Shown here: positions 1 to 8,653 of the stretch, in pieces | How the letters are laid out: every line of letters begins with the position of its first letter | Numbering within the stretch: position 1 is the first letter of the stretch | Notes under the pieces: model-generated | Databases searched by the model: none | What the model was told of the DNA's origin: nothing | What the model saw: the letters and a program-made list of their open reading frames with translations, nothing else | From: a virus | Taxonomy: Duplodnaviria; Heunggongvirae; Uroviricota; Caudoviricetes | Direction: 5' to 3' (one strand) | DNA length: 8,653 bases | IMG/VR virus record: IMGVR_UViG_2526164666_000018 | Location: 1-8,653 of that record | Translations under genes and position numbers: made by a program

Positions 1-348
1 GTTCCTGATGGTGTGGCGATGACGGGTACCGGTAATCCGTTCCTGATGTCGTACTTCACTCAGACCACTGACGGCAGAGTGAATCTGATGCATCACAGGA
101 AAGCCGGAAACACGAAGCTGGGGGAGTTCGGCGATTACGGTAACGACTGGCAGACGCTGGAGCTGGTGTTCACCGCCGGCAGTGCCACGGTTACTCCGAA
201 ACTGAATGGAGTGGCTGGCCCGGCATTCCAGGTTATAAAAGACAGTCTGACACTGGGACTGAATGCGCTGACGGATGTTACAAAAAATGCAGCGTATGGC
301 GTTGAGATAGAAAGTCTGGTGCTGGAGATAAATGCACCGGCAGCATAA
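1..348 (+). CDS. 3'-terminal part of a larger ORF that begins upstream of the window; product unknown. Its position immediately upstream of the holin is where Stx/lambdoid prophages often carry a nanS-p-type esterase gene, but the sequence itself was not recognised.
   Basis: Frame 1 is open from base 1 to the TAA at 346-348; the track ORF 13..348 is an internal GTG. Translation is protein-like with no low complexity. Product assignment is synteny-based inference only. Confidence 0.5.
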   Translation, partial: VPDGVAMTGTGNPFLMSYFTQTTDGRVNLMHHRKAGNTKLGEFGDYGNDWQTLELVFTAGSATVTPKLNGVAGPAFQVIKDSLTLGLNALTDVTKNAAYGVEIESLVLEINAPAA

Positions 349-349
349 T

Positions 350-650
350 AAAAAAAGAGCCAGCGACTGACCTGAAAGAAGACGCTGGCTAAAAGGCCTT
401 ATATGTTTGTAGAGACTTATTTTTCACAGACAGCAATGATGCCTGTCAATATATTATCAATATGCGGATTGTTTCAGTTACAGATGCTTTATTAAGGAAA
501 AAAACAGCCAGCACTGACTTTCGGTGGAGAGGTGCTGGCTCAGAAGGATAGTTGGATTTCACATGATACTTATGCCTGGCGGTATATTTTCTGACAGACA
601 GTGACGGGTGTTGTCAAGATATTGTGTCATTTATAACCTGAATCAGGGGA
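350..650. repeat. Degenerate tandem duplication (two units of ~150-170 bp), each with an A7 tract, an 8-9 bp stem hairpin and a conserved TTTTC..ACAGACAG...TGTCAA(T/G)ATATT block
   Basis: Unit 1: A-run 350-356, stem AGCCAGCG 358-365 pairing CGCTGGCT 383-390, then ttttcacagacag at 421-433 and tgtcaatatatt from 444. Unit 2: A-run 498-504, stem AGCCAGCAC 506-514 pairing GTGCTGGCT 532-540, then ttttctgacagacag near 587-600 and tgtcaagatatt from 612. Aligned by eye. Confidence 0.5.
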
Positions 651-715
651 GGCCGGAATGTTATCTGGCATTTTTAGCAGAGCCTGAATGCCATAATCAC
701 GGCTCCCGGAGTTGG

Positions 716-750
716 CCGTCAGTGGGTGACACTGGCGGTTTTTTTGTTTT
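716..750 (+). terminator. Candidate rho-independent terminator 46 bp upstream of the S start
   Basis: Stem CCGTCAGTG (716-724) pairs with CACTGGCGG (730-738) with one G-U wobble, loop ggtga, followed by TTTTTTTGTTTTT (739-751). Confidence 0.55.
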
Positions 751-795
751 TCTTTACTTTCATTTTCTGTCGGCGGTGACGGAGACATACATCAG

Positions 796-1002
796 ATGGA
801 AAAAATCACAACAGGTGTGTCATACACCACGTCAGCGGTGGGGACGGGATACTGGTTACTGCAGCTGCTGGACAAAGTCTCTCCGTCCCAGTGGGTGGCA
901 ATAGGTGTGCTGGGGAGTCTGCTGTTTGGCCTGCTGACGTATCTGACAAATCTTTATTTCAAGATTAAAGAAGATAAGCGTAAGGCTGCACGGGGAGAGT
1001 AA
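796..1002 (+). CDS. S: Class II holin (pinholin), phage 21 S / Stx-phage S type
   Basis: 68 aa ([13 protein letters not shown]...[22 protein letters not shown]) with two hydrophobic segments and a charged C-terminus, closely resembling phage 21 / 933W S as I recall it. GGAG at 781-784 precedes the ATG. It is first gene of a lysis cassette. Confidence 0.9.
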
Positions 1003-1006
1003 TTCA

Positions 1007-1558
1007 ATGACTCAAAACTATGAACTGATTGTGAAAGGGATCCGCAATTTTGAGAATAAAGTTACGGTAACCTTAGCGTTACGGGACAAAAAACGCTTTG
1101 ACGGTGAAATTTTTGACCTGGACATCTCGCTGGACCGTGTTGAAGGTGCCGCGCTGGAGTTTTATGAGGCAGCAGCCAGAAGGAGCATCAGACAGGTCTT
1201 CCTGGATGTTGCTGCCGGGTTATGTGAAGGGGGTGAGCAGTCGCCGGAAAAGCGCCCCATAATTTTAGAGGCGCAGAATGTGTGGATAACCTACAAAGGA
1301 AAGCTACCGGGAAGAATTACTGGTTCTCTGAAGACTCCACCGGCGGCATTGCGGTCAGAAAAAGACGATATTGAATCGCCCATTGAAAAACTGGAGGGCA
1401 GAGTCGCTGATCTGAATAAAAAATTGTCGGTGCTGATCCCTTCTGAAGATGAAAAAAAACGCCGCGATGAGCAGTTTGCGGCGTTTTACGATTATTGCAT
1501 TGAGGTTACTCGCAGGAATTTTGTGAAGATTTTTGAGGAGGGTAAATCTCTTCAGTAA
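1007..1558 (+). CDS. Hypothetical 183-aa soluble protein inserted between holin and endolysin; function unknown
   Basis: ATG at 1007 lies 4 nt after the S stop (1000-1002) with GGGGAGAG upstream, suggesting translational coupling to S within the late operon. No TM segment and no recognisable catalytic motif; the C-terminal half is charged and helical-looking (IEKLEGRVADLNKKLSVLI). Confidence 0.7.
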   Translation: MTQNYELIVKGIRNFENKVTVTLALRDKKRFDGEIFDLDISLDRVEGAALEFYEAAARRSIRQVFLDVAAGLCEGGEQSPEKRPIILEAQNVWITYKGKLPGRITGSLKTPPAALRSEKDDIESPIEKLEGRVADLNKKLSVLIPSEDEKKRRDEQFAAFYDYCIEVTRRNFVKIFEEGKSLQ

Positions 1559-1768
1559 GCTTAATGGCGGACTCTGCAATTAATTCTGGAAGGTCCGCAA
1601 GGTCATCTGTCAGTGGGAATGATGAAAAATCGGCGGCAGTTCTGTTAAGAATTGTTTTAACGAACTCCTTTTCATTATCCGGCAACAAGTTGATTAGAGC
1701 CACGACAGCTTGCCTGAGTGCGATTAAATCAGCAAAAGTTTGTTTTGGTAGATTTGGATAATCCATAG
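1506..1768 (-). CDS. Hypothetical 87-aa acidic protein, antisense to and overlapping the 3' end of the 183-aa gene
   Basis: Minus-strand ATG at 1766-1768 preceded by AGAGGTGA (reverse complement of 1774-1781) at good spacing. Product begins MDYPNLPKQTFADLIALRQ and ends QNSCE, stop at 1506-1508. The track's longer 1506..1991 version would run into R and lacks this RBS. Confidence 0.45.
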
Positions 1769-1877
1769 TCACCTCTGTGTTTATCAGATTGACATACCCT
1801 GGCCAGTGCCCACCACTGGCGGGGTGAAGGCTTAACATATCCAGGGATTCGGAACCGATAAATCCTGATAAATATCC

Positions 1878-2411
1878 ATGAACGCAAAAATCAAATACGG
1901 CCTGTCGGCTGCCGTTCTGGCGCTGATTGGTGCAGGGGCGTCTGCGCCTGAAATCCTCGACCAGTTTCTGGATGAAAAGGAAGGTAACCACACCACGGCA
2001 TACCGTGATGGTGCGGGTATCTGGACCATCTGCCGTGGAGCCACCCGGGTGGATGGTAAGCCTGTTATTCCTGGCATGAAACTGACGAAGGAAAAATGCG
2101 ACCAGGTTAACGCTATTGAACGTGATAAGGCGCTGGCATGGGTGGAGAAAAACATCCGGGTGCCGCTGACCGAACCCCAGAAAGCGGGGATCGCGTCATT
2201 CTGTCCGTACAACATTGGCCCCGGTAAGTGCTTCCCGTCGACGTTTTATAAACGAATTAATGCAGGCGATCGAAAAGGTGCCTGTGAGGCGATTCGCTGG
2301 TGGATTAAGGACGGTGGCAGAGACTGCCGTATCCGTTCAAATAATTGCTACGGTCAGGTCTCACGGCGTGACCAGGAGAGCGCGCTGGCGTGCTGGGACA
2401 TCGACAGATAG
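1878..2411 (+). CDS. R: SAR (signal-anchor-release) endolysin, T4-lysozyme-like muramidase, Stx-phage R type
   Basis: 177 aa. N-terminal Gly/Ala-rich weakly hydrophobic segment (YGLSAAVLALIGAGASA) typical of SAR domains, followed by an E-x8-D-x5-T catalytic pattern (EGNHTTAYRDGAGIWT). Closely resembles the R endolysin of Stx2 phages as I recall it. Pairs with the pinholin. Confidence 0.9.
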   Translation: MNAKIKYGLSAAVLALIGAGASAPEILDQFLDEKEGNHTTAYRDGAGIWTICRGATRVDGKPVIPGMKLTKEKCDQVNAIERDKALAWVEKNIRVPLTEPQKAGIASFCPYNIGPGKCFPSTFYKRINAGDRKGACEAIRWWIKDGGRDCRIRSNNCYGQVSRRDQESALACWDIDR

Positions 2412-2502
2412 CAGAATATTTTCCTGAAAAATGACGTTGGCCAACGCGGGTGGATAACACGAAATCCTGAAAACTGGTAAAACCTAAGTGAATAAAAGTA
2501 AA

Positions 2503-2540
2503 AACCCCGTTTGTTGGCAGCAAGCGGGGTTTTGTGTTTT
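2503..2540. terminator. Candidate hairpin/terminator in the R-Rz spacer, plausible on either strand
   Basis: Stem AACCCCG (2503-2509) pairs with CGGGGTT (2525-2531) across a 15-nt loop, followed on + by TTGTGTTTT and preceded by AAAA (a U-run on the minus strand). The large loop lowers confidence. Confidence 0.4.
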
Positions 2541-2746
2541 CTGACCTTGAGCAAGGCAAGGGAGAAATTATGGGTAGGGAGGTACTTTCCCTGTGAGGAA
2601 GTATAAAAGATTCTTTCTGAGGTTGTCCATTATGAAAGGCATTGAAGTGGAGACGCCAGCCAGTCTGGATTTAACAAGAGCGGCAGCTTTTGCCATTCGT
2701 ATTGTGGCCATTGCTGTTCTGGTCTGGGCAATCCGTTGGTGGTGAT

Positions 2747-3214
2747 ATGAACCGTGTTCTGTGCGTGGTTATCATTGTCCTGCTGGTGGCCTGTGGTGCG
2801 CTTAGTCTGGGGCTGAATCATTACCGTGATCACGCCATCATCTACAAAGAGCAGCGCGATAAAAAAGCCAGTGAGCTGGAGCTGGCGAACGCGACAATTA
2901 CTGATATGCAGATACGCCAGCGTGATGTCGCTGCACTTGATGCCAGATACTCGAGGGAATTAGCCGATGCGAGAGCTGAAAATGAAACTCTGCGTGCTGA
3001 TGTTGCCGCTGGTCGTAAGCGCCTGCGGATCAACGCCACCTGCTCCGGTACCGTGCGTGAAGCCACCGGCACCTCCGGCGTGGATAATGCAACCGGCCCC
3101 CGACTGGCAGACACCGCTGAACGGGATTATTTCATCCTCAGAGAACGGCTGATGGCAATGCAGAAGCAACTGGAAGGAGCACAGGAATATATCCGTACCC
3201 AGTGTATACCGTGA
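2747..3214 (+). CDS. Rz: Rz i-spanin (inner-membrane spanin subunit)
   Basis: Translation from the ATG at 2747 (MNRVLCVVIIVLLVACGALSLGLNHYRDHAIIYKEQRDK...) has an N-terminal TM helix and coiled-coil periplasmic domain and is highly similar to lambda Rz. The track ORF 2690..3214 has an N-terminal extension not matching Rz. Confidence 0.9.
   Translation: MNRVLCVVIIVLLVACGALSLGLNHYRDHAIIYKEQRDKKASELELANATITDMQIRQRDVAALDARYSRELADARAENETLRADVAAGRKRLRINATCSGTVREATGTSGVDNATGPRLADTAERDYFILRERLMAMQKQLEGAQEYIRTQCIP
2967..3152 (+). CDS. Rz1: Rz1 o-spanin lipoprotein, embedded in the +1 frame within Rz
   Basis: 61 aa with a lipobox (LPLVVSAC) and a proline-rich mature part (PPAPVPCVKPPAPPAWIMQPAPDWQTPLNGII), fully embedded in Rz as in lambda. 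An alternative start is the Met at 2982. Confidence 0.85.
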   Translation: MRELKMKLCVLMLPLVVSACGSTPPAPVPCVKPPAPPAWIMQPAPDWQTPLNGIISSSENG

Positions 3215-3679
3215 TATTTTGTTATGAAGGTGTTACTGGTAACGTTAAGGTAATTTAACAAAGAGTCAGTTCCGGACTTTATAGTGTGCTCAGTTCATGG
3301 CCAAAAACGATTTCTGTGATAAATATTTTGAATATTATTTACAGGTAAATGGAGTGGGGCACATGGATAGAAATATTACAATAGAGAATGAAGTATATGC
3401 CCGTATTGTATGGGCAGAGAAGGCAAAAACACGGTAATTCCGTGTGTTGCCATGATACCTGATTGGCAGAATAGTTGTTTGGTTTTGAGTATATAGTCAG
3501 CGTTTTTTGTTCAGTAATTGCTCCCTCAAAAAATAATAAAACAAGGTGATTATTTTTGTTTATTATTTAGTTTTTTTTGTGTGTTGTTTTATTGTTTTTG
3601 CGTGGTTTGTTTTTTATTGTTATTTCATTAAGGGAAGGTAAATTCAGGATGGCAGTCTGTAGATAATCGGAGGTCACTT

Positions 3680-3994
3680 ATGCTACATGATCACGTGGCA
3701 GAATGTCTGGAGAAAAAAGGACTGTACCGGAGAGCAGCTGAACGATGGGCAAAAGTGATGGTACAGCTAAGTGATGACCAGAAAAGAAAAGTGGCGGCAC
3801 AGAAACGAGCAGAGTGTTTGCGTAAGGCGCGCCGGACTCCGGTTTCACCGGTGAACCTGACCGAAATAAAACAAGCGGTCAACAGACTACATTCTGAGTT
3901 GGGAATGGGATTTGAAGAGCGGCGGGTATTCCGACGATATAAAGGGACAGGAGAACAGAATACGTCCGGAAACGCGCGGTCAAAAAAATGCTAA
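3680..3994 (+). CDS. Small basic 104-aa protein, tentatively a PerC-family (Pch-like) transcriptional regulator; moron-type cargo
   Basis: GGAGGT at 3669-3674 lies 5 nt before the ATG. The N-terminal motif AECLEKKGLYRRAAERW resembles what I remember of PerC/Pch regulators from EPEC/EHEC; this assignment is from memory and unverified. The gene is flanked by AT-rich DNA and followed by a terminator. Confidence 0.6.
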   Translation: MLHDHVAECLEKKGLYRRAAERWAKVMVQLSDDQKRKVAAQKRAECLRKARRTPVSPVNLTEIKQAVNRLHSELGMGFEERRVFRRYKGTGEQNTSGNARSKKC

Positions 3995-4030
3995 AAAATA
4001 TCTGAGAGAGTTATTGCCTGTTACCATAAG

Positions 4031-4057
4031 AAAAAGCGACTTTAGTGGTCGCTTTTT
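4031..4057. terminator. Bidirectional rho-independent terminator between convergent genes
   Basis: Perfect 10-bp palindrome AAAAAGCGAC (4031-4040) / GTCGCTTTTT (4048-4057) with a 7-nt loop, so a GC stem flanked by A and T tracts, sitting between the ends of the 3680..3994 (+) and 4076..4300 (-) ORFs. Confidence 0.6.
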
Positions 4058-4075
4058 GTGTCATATATAAGTCGT

Positions 4076-4300
4076 TTAAGTAAACCTGTCTGAACAGGTG
4101 CTCTGGTCGTGTTTGTCTTTGTTGGGTACAAATTGAGAATATTTTTCATTAATTAATCTTCTTCTGCAGGCTTCAATAACCCACGCTGAAAAATTACCTG
4201 AACCTTTCAGGTCAAGAGCGATGTTAATTTGTTCAATTATCTGGTTTGGAAATCGGATGTTGCGGGTTGTTGTTCTGCGGGTTCTGTTCTTTGATGACAT
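4076..4300 (-). CDS. Small 74-aa basic protein with a ribbon-helix-helix-like pattern (possibly YlcI/DUF3950-like); putative DNA-binding regulator
   Basis: Minus-strand ORF MSSKNRTRRTTTRNIRFPNQIIEQINIALDLKGSGNFSAWVIEACRRRL...: a basic N-terminus, a short beta-strand-like segment then helices, as in Arc/CopG RHH proteins. Family assignment is from memory only. The RBS is weak. Confidence 0.5.
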   Translation of the reverse strand: MSSKNRTRRTTTRNIRFPNQIIEQINIALDLKGSGNFSAWVIEACRRRLINEKYSQFVPNKDKHDQSTCSDRFT

Positions 4301-4469
4301 AATGTTGCCCCGTATTCAGTGTTGCTGATTTGTATTATCTGAAGTTGCTTTTACGCTAATTTGATGCAGATCAATTAATACGATACCTGCGTAATAATTG
4401 ATTATTTCTCGTGGTTTGATGGCGTACACACATGTCGTGATAAACCTCATGTAGATGATAATTATTATC

Positions 4470-4690
4470 ATTTTCGTGGGTCCTTTCCGGCGATCCGACA
4501 GGTTACGGGGCGGCGACCTCGCGGGTTTTCGCTATTTATGAAAATTTTCCGGGGAAAATCATGTCGGTACTTCTCGAACATAACTATTTGTTTTTCTAAT
4601 ATCGAATCCGTAAAGGTCCGACATGAAAACGCCTGAAAAAGTCATTTTCGGGCACTTTCATGTCGGACCCTGTATTTGTTGTGAGACTGT
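4470..4690 (+). other. cos: Phage cohesive-end site cos (cosQ-cosN-cosB); the 12-nt cohesive end GGGCGGCGACCT is at 4508-4519
   Basis: tcgtgggtcctttccggcgatccgacaggttacg|GGGCGGCGACCT|cgcgggttttcgctatttatgaaaattttccgg matches the lambda right-end/left-end junction almost base for base (from memory). Downstream are three CATGTCGG-type repeats at about 4556-4571, 4614-4632 (inverted) and 4650-4665, taken as cosB R elements, immediately upstream of Nu1. Confidence 0.85.
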
Positions 4691-4693
4691 TTC

Positions 4694-5213
4694 ATGAAGG
4701 TTAATAAAAAGAAACTTGCCGAAATTTTCAAAGTGGATCCGCGAACGATTGAACGCTGGCAGTCTCAGGGGCTCCCTTGCGTCTCCGGAGGTGGTAAGGG
4801 CGTTGAATCTGTATTTGATACCGCCACGGCAATTCAGTGGTATGCGCAGAGGGAAGCTGATATCGAAAATGAAAAACTCCGTAAAGAGGTTGAGGATTAC
4901 AGGGCTGCCAGCGAGGCAGATCTCCAGCCTGGGACTATTGAGTACGAACGCCATCGACTTACGCGTGCGCAGGCTGACGCCCAGGAGCTGAAGAATGCCA
5001 GAGACTCCGCAGAAGTGGTGGAAACCGCATTCTGTACTTTCGTGCTGTCACGGATCGCAGGTGAAATTGCCAGTATTCTTGACGGGATCCCTCTCTCAGT
5101 ACAGCGGCGTTTTCCGGAACTGGAAAACCGACATGTTGATTTCCTGAAACGGGATATTATCAAAGCCATGAACAAAGCAGCCGCGCTGGATGAACTGATA
5201 CCGGGGTTGCTGA

Positions 5214-5239
<26 letters not shown>
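4694..5239 (+). CDS. nu1: Terminase small subunit (gpNu1-like)
   Basis: 181 aa. From about residue 55 onward (IENEKLR...[59 protein letters not shown]...[12 protein letters not shown]) it is near-identical to lambda Nu1 as I recall it; the N-terminal ~50 aa DNA-binding region differs. It sits immediately downstream of cos and overlaps the start of A. Confidence 0.95.
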
Positions 5240-7338
<2,099 letters not shown>

Positions 7339-7342
<4 letters not shown>

Positions 7343-8653
7343 AAATGTCCACCATTCCCACCCTTCTGGGGCCGGACGGCATGACATCGCTGCGTGAATA
7401 TGCCGGTTATCACGGCGGTGGCAGCGGATTTGGTGGGCAGTTGCGGGCGTGGAACCCACCGGGTGAAAGTGTGGATGCAGCCCTGCTGCCCAACTTTACC
7501 CGTGGCAATGCCCGCGCAGACGATCTGGTACGCAATAACGGCTATGCCGCCAACGCCATCCAGTTGCATCAGGATCATATCGTCGGGTCTTTTTTCCGAC
7601 TCAGTCATCGCCCAAGCTGGCGCTATCTGGGCATCGGGGAGGAAGAAGCCCGTGCCTTTTCCCGCGAGGTTGAAGCGGCATGGAAAGAGTTTGCCGAAGA
7701 TGACTGTTGCTGCATTGACGTTGAGCGAAAACGCACGTTTACCATGATGATTCGGGAAGGTGTGGCCATGCACGCCTTTAACGGTGAACTGTTCGTTCAG
7801 GCCACCTGGGATACCCGTCCCTCGCGACTGTTCCGGACACAGTTCCGGATGGTCAGCCCGAAGCGCATCAGCAACCCGAACAATACCGGCGACAGCCGGA
7901 ACTGCCGTGCCGGTGTGCAGATTAATGACAGCGGTGCGGCGCTGGGATATTACGTCAGCGAGGACGGGTATCCTGGCTGGATGCCGCAGAAATGGACATG
8001 GATACCCCGCGAGTTACCCGGCGGTCGTGCTTCGTTCATTCACGTCTTTGAACCCGTGGAGGACGGGCAGACCCGCGGTGCAAATGTGTTTTACAGCGTG
8101 ATGGAGCAGATGAAGATGCTCGACACGCTGCAGAACACGCAGCTGCAGAGCGCCATTGTGAAGGCGATGTATGCCGCCACCATTGAGAGTGAGCTGGATA
8201 CGCAGTCAGCGATGGATTTTATTCTGGGCGCGAACAGTCAGGAGCAGCGGGAAAGGCTGACCGGCTGGATTGGTGAAATTGCCGCGTATTACTCCGCAGC
8301 ACCGGTCCGTCTGGGAGGCGCAAAAGTGCCGCACCTGATGCCGGGGGACTCACTGAACCTGCAGACGGCTCAGGACACGGATAACGGCTACTCCGTGTTT
8401 GAGCAGTCACTGCTGCGGTATATCGCTGCCGGGCTGGGTGTCTCGTATGAGCAGCTTTCCCGGAATTACGCCCAGATGAGCTACTCCACGGCACGGGCCA
8501 GTGCGAACGAGTCGTGGGCGTACTTTATGGGGCGGCGAAAATTCGTCGCATCCCGTCAGGCGAGCCAGATGTTTCTGTGCTGGCTGGAAGAGGCCATCGT
8601 TCGCCGCGTGGTGACGTTACCTTCAAAAGCGCGCTTCAGCTTTCAGGAAGCCC
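7339..8653 (+). CDS. B: Portal protein (gpB-like), 5' portion; the ORF continues past the window end
   Basis: ATG at 7339 overlaps the ancestral W stop (ATGA). Frame 1 is open to the window end (438 codons). Translation MKMSTIPTLLGPDGMTSLREYAGYHGGGSGFGGQLRAWNPPGESVDAALLPNFTRGNARADDLVRNNGYAANAIQLHQDHIVGSFFRLSHRPSWRYLGIGEEEARAF... is near-identical to lambda gpB as recalled. It is absent from the ORF track only because no stop lies in the window. Confidence 0.9.

Follow-up and report, generated by a model that had tools for sequence, protein, structure and literature searches.

The closest described relatives of the feature analysed here are PasA and PasC of EPEC. PasA is one of five "pathogenicity-associated" small RNAs (sRNAs) found by RIL-seq in EPEC E2348/69 (Pearl Mizrahi et al. 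2021, PMC8550237), all of which gave Northern bands of the predicted size and depended on Hfq for their stability (PMC8550237). It is encoded on the minus strand between the esterase gene E2348C_0688 and the holin gene E2348C_0689, with a 5' end at 743,499, a major 3' end at 743,415 (85 nt) and a minor 3' end at 743,264 (236 nt), and PasC was mapped in the same work at 1,290,909 to 1,290,832 (Table S6, PMC8550237); for both PasA and PasC, a discrete, Hfq-stabilised RNA of ~80–85 nt has been published in EPEC (PMC8550237). PasA has 41 RIL-seq partners, including the 3' ends of the esterase genes E2348C_0688 and E2348C_1246, and the motif CUGaUGCUGG shared by its targets can pair with the 5' arm of the PasA terminator itself (PMC8550237); the seed proposed for it in fig. 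S5 of that study is GCCAGCACCU (Pearl Mizrahi et al. 2021, PMC8550237). More recently, Zhu, Shabalina & Storz (2026, bioRxiv 10.64898/2026.05.13.724894) described an esterase-PasA-holin-lysozyme synteny and a common origin of PasA and PasC, called the position of the PasA seed unusual, named a variant, PasA-2, that differs from PasA in the first 40 nt, and pointed out that the mature 5' end of PasA may arise by cleavage of a longer transcript.

A second line of work concerns E. coli O157:H7 Sakai, where EcOnc51 (prophage Sp12), EcOnc52 (Sp4) and EcOnc35 (Sp4) were recorded as orphan Hfq-CRAC peaks (Tree et al. 2014, PMC4104026, Table S2) and listed as predicted sRNAs with Rho-independent terminators (PMC4104026). 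Two further RNAs of that strain, EcOnc32 (~112 nt) and EcOnc33 (~71 nt), were seen on Northern blots (Tree et al. 2014, PMC4104026). For EHEC, EcOnc51 and EcOnc52 were later listed as homologous to PasA (Table S6 of Pearl Mizrahi et al. 2021, PMC8550237). EcOnc35, EcOnc51 and EcOnc52 are candidates only in the published list, on the minus strand relative to the late operon, as in the DNA analysed here, and no mention of them was found in the main texts that were searched.

The window, i.e. the whole stretch of 8,653 nucleotides that was analysed (positions 1 to 8,653 of IMG/VR record IMGVR_UViG_2526164666_000018), belongs to the late region of a lambdoid prophage of the H-19B / 434 / Stx1a-phage type, its first 1,041 bases being 96% identical to phages of that type. 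An esterase reading frame, labelled "SASA family carbohydrate esterase" in RefSeq and phage annotations, enters from the left edge and ends at 348, with its stop codon adjoining an A7 run; a spacer of 447 bp separates it from the holin gene, which is followed by genes for a DUF1327 protein and then a phage lysozyme (Pfam). Two repeat units, numbered here from the esterase end, are contained in this spacer on the minus strand. The features to which the text refers are as follows, from left to right.

13 to 348, plus strand: 3' end of a SASA-family sialic-acid esterase gene (nanS-p type, DUF6645 C-terminal domain), from the ORF list and a Pfam match to DUF6645 (E 2.4e-10).
350 to 390, minus strand: intrinsic terminator of unit 1, with the pyrimidine-rich 17-nt loop UCUUCUUUCAGGUCAGU and U7 at 356 to 350, from the pattern, folding and the phage 434 annotation.
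350 to 417, minus strand: unit 1 RNA, predicted to be ~65 nt long (about 414 to 350) if it has its own promoter, and equated with Sakai EcOnc51/EcOnc52 from sequence identity, CRAC peaks and an inferred start.
420 to 449, minus strand: promoter-like element of unit 1 (TTGACA at 449 to 444, a spacer of 17–18 nt and the A-rich -10 region TGAAAAAT at 426 to 419), an architecture common to 37 units of the family.
498 to 540, minus strand: intrinsic terminator of unit 2, with the 17-nt loop CUCUCCACCGAAAGUCA and U7 at 504 to 498, from the pattern, folding and the phage 434 annotation.
498 to 582, minus strand: unit 2 RNA, an 85-nt sRNA of the PasA family equated with Sakai EcOnc35, from mapped PasA coordinates, the EcOnc35 CRAC peak at 514–587 and CLASH reads at 499–581.
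588 to 617, minus strand: putative promoter of unit 2 (PasA), with TTGACA at 617 to 612, a spacer of 17–18 nt and the -10 sequence TCAGAAA at 594 to 588, from the PasA/PasC 5' ends and family conservation.
714 to 745, plus strand: intrinsic terminator, given for context and probably outside the sRNA genes, from a scan, folding (z -3.4) and the phage 434 annotation.
796 to 1002, plus strand: S21-type (P21-type) class II holin gene, the first lysis gene, from a Pfam match to Phage_holin_2_1 (E 1.2e-32).

When these features are taken together, positions 350–617 probably hold two tandem paralogous sRNA genes on the minus strand, opposite the Q-dependent late operon (esterase, holin, endolysin), of which unit 2 would be a PasA variant and unit 1 would be EcOnc51/52, both acting in trans on Hfq; we put the probability of this reading at about 0.75. 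Each gene would comprise a sigma-70-type promoter, a short body and a terminator with an unusually large pyrimidine-rich loop and a U7 tract. The feature as such is already known, unit 2 as PasA and EcOnc35 and unit 1 as EcOnc51/52. It seems not to have been stated in published papers that EcOnc51/52 correspond to the downstream unit, not to PasA proper, that unit 1 has the full build of a separate paralogous gene, or that EcOnc32, probably EcOnc33 and a Stx-phage unit share the cassette build. Little is added to the literature; of possible use are a base-level split of the EHEC peaks into two tandem units, a wider list of relatives and a description of the cassette build that they share, in which a consensus -35 box is combined with a covarying GCCAGC stem and a terminator loop that is large and CU-rich.

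Both units contain an A7 run followed by AGCCAGC, which begins at 350 in unit 1 and at 498 in unit 2. The runs themselves (350–356 and 498–504) are read on the minus strand as a U7 after each hairpin, starting one base past the stem in both units, and each stem includes six G-C pairs. Hairpin 1 (358–390) is formed by AGCCAGCG and CGCTGGCT, with 8 bp and a 17-nt loop, and hairpin 2 (506–540) by AGCCAGCAC and GTGCTGGCT, with 9 bp and a loop of the same length, while the hexamer TGTCAA, which is TTGACA on the minus strand, lies at 444–449 and 612–617. An earlier note, made from the letters alone, had placed A7 runs, hairpins and TGTCAA blocks upstream of the holin, and all of them were confirmed in the sequence. 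The tandem degenerate repeat of which it spoke is real, since the best local alignment of the two units scores 32 against 15.5 ± 2.2 in shuffles, but the likeness is concentrated in three blocks, namely the promoter, the terminator arms and the U-run, and is weak elsewhere; the predicted unit 1 and unit 2 RNAs are ~60% identical. The note's impression of intrinsic terminators on the minus strand also held, with the U7 after each hairpin and published 3' ends at the U-run. A GC-rich stem directly followed by a U-run, by which such terminators are recognised, is present in both units, their 17-nt loops being atypically long, and the arrangement AGCCAGC-N8-30-GCTGGCT occurs twice in the window and in none of 200 shuffles. 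The curated record of phage 434 has both hairpins as minus-strand terminators, and a third, plus-strand terminator just before the holin. Since it allowed loops of at most 8 nt, a simple terminator scan did not detect the hairpin of unit 2 and picked up no more than a sub-hairpin of unit 1.

As the note had also held, no protein-coding explanation fits: none of the ORFs of at least 20 aa in 349–650 looks coding, and those of 20–98 aa in or near the spacer gave no Pfam match where tested and are not protein-like. A type I toxin-antitoxin system was considered and rejected. The sole candidate for it is a 30-aa ORF at 403–495 on the plus strand, in which no clear membrane segment is visible by eye and which has no counterpart in unit 2, where the plus-strand ATG at 563 opens only 10 codons.

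When folded, the 67-nt minus-strand RNA of unit 1 is more stable than its shuffles (z = -3.7), but the stretches of unit 2 that were folded are not significantly so (z -0.7 and -1.5). On the plus strand, the values are -5.5 for unit 1 and -0.9 for unit 2. The former value, together with the ARN- or SD-like loops GAAAGAAGA and GGUGGAGAGG, speaks for a function of the plus strand, on which the hairpins, whose loops are purine-rich there, would act in the late mRNA or the esterase 3' UTR as elements for stability, processing or Hfq (A-R-N) binding; processing or stability elements in the late transcript were also the second option of the note. Such a function is highly improbable. A U-run follows the hairpin on the minus strand only, the G.U wobbles found in PasC-type and L044-type stems of the family pair only on that strand and become C.A mismatches on the other, the Hfq-CRAC, CLASH and RIL-seq signals for these elements all come from the minus strand, and the plus strand of unit 2 is not unusually stable. 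The plus-strand stability of unit 1 is taken as a side effect of the hairpin that both strands share and of a chance second helix over the promoter. The minus strand is thus regarded as the functional one because of the side on which the U-run lies, the wobbles and the strand-specific reads, covariation alone giving no strand.

The identity of unit 2 follows from the comparison with the PP2 prophage of E2348/69, whose locus has the same two-unit layout and aligns base for base with the window. Mapped in this way, the 5' end of PasA falls on 582 and its major 3' end on 498, the last U of the unit 2 U7, while the minor 3' end (743,264) falls on about 347, just past the U-run of unit 1. PasA and unit 2 thus have their locus, strand, two-unit arrangement, 85-nt length and ends in common. 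The two are identical at 74 of 85 positions (87%); the 11 mismatches are confined to the 5' 40 nt, and no change is seen in the 3' 46 nt, which include the terminator and the proposed seed. Judged by this alignment, unit 2 is a variant of the published Hfq-dependent sRNA PasA, and it may be the variant that Zhu et al. named PasA-2. The traits by which the PasA/PasC family is recognised are present as well, i.e. the locus and the opposite strand, the 3' stem-loop with its U-tract and, for unit 2, similarity of the seed. PasC, from the EPEC prophage PP5, is a single-unit relative with 73% identity to unit 2.

Both units are 100% identical to the copies in the Sp4 and Sp12 prophages of E. coli O157:H7 Sakai. 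Since the Sakai coordinates of 2014 and those of NC_002695.2 differ by +137 nt at Sp12, the EcOnc peaks were anchored by means of the reads whose sequences appear in the CLASH tables of Waters et al. 2017 (PMC5286369). The EcOnc51 and EcOnc52 peaks map to window positions 339–416 and 342–418 on the minus strand, i.e. to unit 1, although the two may be one signal mapped twice, because the Sp4 and Sp12 copies are identical; the EcOnc35 peak maps to 514–587 on the minus strand, i.e. to unit 2. By this mapping, PasA proper corresponds to EcOnc35, and EcOnc51/52 to the downstream unit. RNase E CLASH reads (Waters et al. 2017, PMC5286369) fall on 352–395, 414–438 and 499–581, all on the minus strand, and several of them end within the U-runs; the CLASH chimeras for EcOnc51, EcOnc52 and EcOnc35 are few, and most are statistically weak (p 0.03–0.3). 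The strand, the ends of unit 2, the binding to Hfq and RNase E and the expression in uninduced lysogens have mostly been established by published work on identical or near-identical sequences. Of the two short minus-strand transcripts of 60–100 nt that the earlier note had envisaged, the one from unit 2 is therefore on record as the 85-nt PasA and the Hfq-CRAC peak EcOnc35, and that from unit 1 is on record as an RNA (EcOnc51/52), its own promoter being presumed.

With regard to the promoters, the distance from the first T of TTGACA to the reported 5' end downstream of it is exactly 35 nt in PasA and PasC alike, and these ends fit the sigma-70 geometry, in which the hexamers are 16–18 nt apart and transcription starts ~7 nt after the -10 box. 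TTGACA accordingly fits a -35 box, as the note had suggested in calling it -35-like. In unit 1 as in unit 2, a perfect TTGACA stands at an equal spacing of 17–18 nt from the same CTGTCTGT..AAAAT block. The -10 regions are weak and A-rich (TCAGAA/CAGAAA in unit 2 and TGAAAA/GAAAAA in unit 1) and were not reported by a consensus scan. The pairs which that scan did propose, CAGACA/TATATT on the plus strand and CTGAAA/TATATT on the minus strand, do not fit the published 5' ends. Likewise, an arrangement with TTGACA at the transcription start and a promoter further upstream (GATAAT / TATAAA) was rejected in view of the ends of PasA and PasC. If the 5' end of PasA results from cleavage, the promoter assignment is weaker.

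Unit 1 is only ~63% identical to PasA, with gaps, and does not contain the seed, and it is on these grounds that it is considered a paralogue, not a copy, of PasA. In the EPEC papers on PasA and PasC it has no name of its own and is treated as the tail of the 236-nt isoform, to the 3' part of which its region corresponds. From the 35-nt distance between TTGACA and the 5' ends of PasA and PasC, its start is expected at about 414–417, and unit 1 may be a shorter paralogue with its own start in that interval. An independent promoter is a presumption here, since the region is annotated in EPEC as the 3' part of a PasA read-through RNA. It is possible, if rather unlikely, that the locus contains one gene, in which only the unit 2 promoter is active and unit 1 is a decayed duplicate that serves the 236-nt isoform as a back-up terminator, the EcOnc51/52 peak being the 3' end or a processing product of that isoform. 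The minor 3' end of Table S6 at the unit 1 terminator, the merging of "pasA.E2348C_0688.IGR" with PasA and the weak -10 region of unit 1 are consistent with this, as are two CLASH reads, of which one extends 4 nt beyond the U-run of unit 2 and the other (438 to 414) lies upstream of the predicted unit 1 start; because the latter crosses the presumed unit 1 promoter, some transcription enters unit 1 from upstream. Against a single gene stand the perfect TTGACA that unit 1 retains, at a spacing like that of unit 2 and ahead of the shared block, the 5' edges of the EcOnc51/52 CRAC peaks at 416–418, which agree with the predicted start (~414), and the existence of single-unit relatives such as PasC that are complete genes with mapped ends. 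In the two-gene reading, the unit 1 terminator would still act as a second stop for PasA transcripts that read through the first one, i.e. those that give the 236-nt isoform.

To place the two units among their relatives, 80 E. coli phage contigs that had been collected via the holin, together with annotated loci and the window itself, were searched for TTGACA followed 30–110 nt later by a stem of at least 7 bp and a T-run. This combination of promoter and terminator gave 82 matches, 77 on the stored minus strand and five on the plus strand; four of these five are Sakai loci with the holin on the minus strand, and the fifth is a short match of 69 nt. Once the latter is dropped, 37 distinct units are obtained, all of them antisense to their holin, with a perfect -35 TTGACA, the same spacer length and an A-rich -10 region. 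Their hairpin loops are pyrimidine-rich and 8–28 nt long, with the exception of one PasC-type variant to which the stem search assigns a 4-nt loop, and a GCCAGC/GCUGGC core underlies most of their stems. Counted over the 700 nt that precede the holin, 10 contigs carry two units, 30 carry one and 31 carry none. Among 62 loci with an S21-type holin from GTDB species genomes of other Enterobacteriaceae, units occur only in E. albertii, apart from one chance match. The family takes in PasC, the Sp3 unit (EcOnc32), a type with the EcOnc33 loop and the Sp5/Sp15 Stx-phage type, which follows immediately on the esterase gene or on what remains of it.

When 15 representative terminators are aligned, four of the nine stem pairs have changed on both sides (one pair, for instance, is A-U in seven sequences and C-G in seven), 91.6% of the cells are paired as against 19–50% with one arm slid, and the observed covariation score is reached by none of 500 shuffles. 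The hairpin is thus under selection. The conservation in related prophages for which the earlier note had asked is seen in 37 distinct units with covarying stems, and neither of the two outcomes that it had named as fatal to its proposal, namely a lack of both minus-strand transcripts and conservation, or a remnant of duplicated coding sequence, was encountered.

The same family data bear on the view that the units are passive insulators or junction scars, whose terminators block stray antisense transcription into the esterase and toxin region and are kept as marks of recombination junctions, the RNAs being by-products. The region is indeed a mosaic, in which the number of units over the 700 nt ahead of the holin varies from none to two, and the hairpin always abuts the esterase stop codon, even in the case of the esterase remnants of Sp3 and of IS-rich plasmids. 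We nevertheless consider this view very unlikely, as every terminator goes together with a consensus -35 box that stands at a fixed distance from it, the type of loop, large and CU-rich, is preserved even where the stems are unrelated in sequence, and the RNAs are abundant, Hfq-dependent and provided with many specific partners.

As far as the mode of action is concerned, we infer that the two RNAs are trans-acting, Hfq-dependent base-pairing regulators, because uninduced lysogens produce them, Hfq and RNase E bind to them, and most of their chimeric partners are unlinked mRNAs. Both would pair in trans with host and prophage mRNAs on Hfq through surfaces in or beside the terminator hairpin, which would be the seed on the 5' arm in the case of PasA and the CU-rich loop UCUUCUUUCAG in the case of unit 1. 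In one CLASH chimera, for instance, the unit 1 loop is joined to the ECs0154 mRNA, the two being perfectly complementary over 12 nt, GUCUUCUUUCAG / CUGAAAGAAGAC (Waters et al. 2017, PMC5286369), and EcOnc32 pairs with a ribosome-binding site through its UUCUCCAC stretch (CLASH, PMC5286369). PasA-type RNAs are among the best-connected sRNAs of the accessory genome in EPEC and are multi-copy in EHEC, and since their neighbours are genes for Shiga toxin, the esterase and lysis, such RNAs may connect the carriage of a prophage with gene regulation in the host.

An additional cis-antisense contact with the 3' end of the esterase mRNA would be possible, given that positions 316–326 of the window (CTGGTGCTGGA) match the PasA target motif of the EPEC esterase 3' ends. 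In a stronger form of this idea, the main role of the units lies in cis, on plus-strand RNA of the spacer (the esterase 3' end and leaky late transcripts), by complementarity and convergent transcription, so that together with the terminator at 714–745 they provide a fail-safe against untimely lysis genes. Every family member is antisense to the late operon spacer, and the two EPEC esterase 3' ends are found among the RIL-seq targets of PasA. The terminator at 714–745, ~50 nt upstream of the holin start, faces both minus-strand units, and a plus-strand terminator at most 120 nt from the holin start occurs in 44 of 71 related loci, with different stem sequences. A main role in cis is nonetheless doubtful. 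The RIL-seq and CLASH partners are mostly unlinked core-genome mRNAs, the RNAs overlap neither the holin ribosome-binding site nor any coding sequence, and a duplex search against the holin start region gave no convincing site (z -0.5 for unit 1 and -2.4 for unit 2, with implausible structures). Lambda OOP and P22 sar are short, terminator-ended RNAs that are transcribed against a phage operon and overlap the coding or ribosome-binding region of the gene which they control. The units of the window are unlike them, as they are located in a spacer and most of the partners on record for them are unlinked mRNAs.

AgvB and AsxR (RF02702 and RF02703) as well as HnrS are also short, Hfq-binding and encoded in the late regions of EHEC lambdoid prophages, and the first two are antisense to the late transcript, as are the window units. 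However, AgvB and AsxR lie upstream of the esterase, the HnrS copies are found ~5 kb beyond the AgvB-type sRNAs of the same prophages (Table S2 coordinates), and the sequences and terminators of all three differ from those of the window units. The Rfam search that the earlier note had recommended returned no match in the window at the gathering score, be it to RF02702, RF02703 or another family, and only chance snoRNA-like matches at E of at most 10 in 250–850; PasA-type families are absent from Rfam, and the positive control, AsxR in Sakai Sp5, was found with 88 bits. With this result and the absence of the HnrS sequence from the window, an identity with AgvB, AsxR or HnrS is ruled out.

Somewhat further than the main reading goes the tentative proposal, which we regard as plausible without favouring it, that unit 1 is an independent, unnamed PasA paralogue with its own promoter, whose 17-nt pyrimidine-rich terminator loop is the pairing surface, and that PasA, PasC, EcOnc32, probably EcOnc33 and the 933W/Sp5-type unit form one cassette family, in which the scaffold of promoter and terminator stays the same and bodies and loops are exchanged, so that every prophage has a target set of its own; at the same time, the 3' end of the esterase mRNA may be contacted in cis by the tandem pair. 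EcOnc33 (Sp6) is likened to the others via a contig type of the same build, with a different stem (GCCGCCGG), in which the terminator loop agrees with the CLASH reads of EcOnc33. EcOnc32 (Sakai Sp3) has the build TTGACA-N17/18-A-rich -10, a body, a GC hairpin with a large CU-rich loop and a U-run, and, like the window units, it precedes a holin gene in antisense orientation; its GCCAGC stem core is related to theirs. The bodies and seeds of both EcOnc32 and EcOnc33 differ from those of the window units, and the predicted length of EcOnc32 is ~91 nt, as compared with the ~112 nt of its Northern band.

When the names in the literature are considered from the point of view of sequence, the assignment of the EcOnc peaks to the two minus-strand units can be refined. 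According to Table S6 of PMC8550237, PasA has its EHEC homologues in EcOnc51/EcOnc52; judged by sequence, EcOnc35 is the counterpart of PasA proper (window 498-582), and EcOnc51/52 correspond to the downstream unit (window 350-417), that is, to the tail of the 236-nt isoform. At Sakai prophage Sp12 (NC_002695.2 around 2,237,500), the supplementary-table coordinates of both Tree et al. 2014 (PMC4104026) and Waters et al. 2017 (PMC5286369) lie 137 nt below those of NC_002695.2, and thus EcOnc51 is put on the wrong unit if mapped by coordinate alone, while at Sp4 (1.18 Mb) the table coordinates show no shift. In Sp4 (locus L004, 5131-6203), an IS629 insertion at window-equivalent ~472 splits unit 1 from unit 2, and the segment from unit 2 to the holin gene is inverted and lies about 4.5 kb off, so that unit 1 of this prophage is out of reach of read-through from the PasA promoter. 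Since the Sp4 copies are identical to those of Sp12, reads do not tell which copy is expressed.

The Sakai prophages Sp5 (Stx2a) and Sp15 (Stx1) carry a different type of unit, which shares the same cassette build and is not among the EcOnc entries listed by Tree et al. 2014. In Sp5, it is directly preceded by an IS-disrupted esterase gene and followed by the small ORF ECs_1210:

L149 (Sp5) 6590-6705, minus strand: TTGACA...CCGCCAGCG-UCCAUUCCUGU-CGCUGGCGG-U7

Just upstream of the esterase gene, on the late-operon strand, STnc100 (Rfam RF02076) is present in all four Sakai prophages examined, corresponding to the PasD/EcOnc13-type partner of the literature; the window begins too far downstream to include this site.

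L003 (Sp15) 8338-8547, late-operon strand: STnc100
L004 (Sp4) 2746-2936, late-operon strand: STnc100
L005 (Sp12) 7674-7846, late-operon strand: STnc100
L149 (Sp5) 2923-3128, late-operon strand: STnc100

The esterase gene itself contains a match to the MEME motif of PasA targets:

window 316-326, plus strand: CTGGTGCTGGA

The PasA seed region has 8 nt, CCAGCACC, that can pair by complementarity with GGUGCUGG, and the RIL-seq target list of PasA includes the equivalent stretch of both EPEC esterase genes (PMC8550237). PasA could therefore contact the 3' end of the neighbouring gene's mRNA. The esterase 3' end and unit 1 also occur on plasmid NZ_CP027601.1 (locus L152, 2501-2701; 92% identical to window 300-502) as an isolated fragment amid IS elements, which two similar ~92-kb plasmids carry as well.

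Opposite unit 1 lies a small ORF, and the RNA of this unit would extend with its 5' end over the start of the ORF:

window 403-495, plus strand: 30-aa ORF MFVETYFSQTAMMPVNILSICGLFQLQMLY, AAGG 6 nt before ATG

As unit 2 has no counterpart of this ORF, a role as a type I toxin is unlikely.

Finally, a strong intrinsic terminator, already present in the phage 434 annotation, precedes the holin start codon by ~50 nt:

window 714-745, plus strand: GGCCGTCAGTG...CACTGGCGG followed by T7

Such an element would leave the lysis genes reachable for Q-modified polymerase only. Of 71 related contigs, 44 have a terminator no more than 120 nt from the holin start; its stem sequence varies between contigs (GCCGTCAGTG, GCCATCAGG or GACCATCGG).
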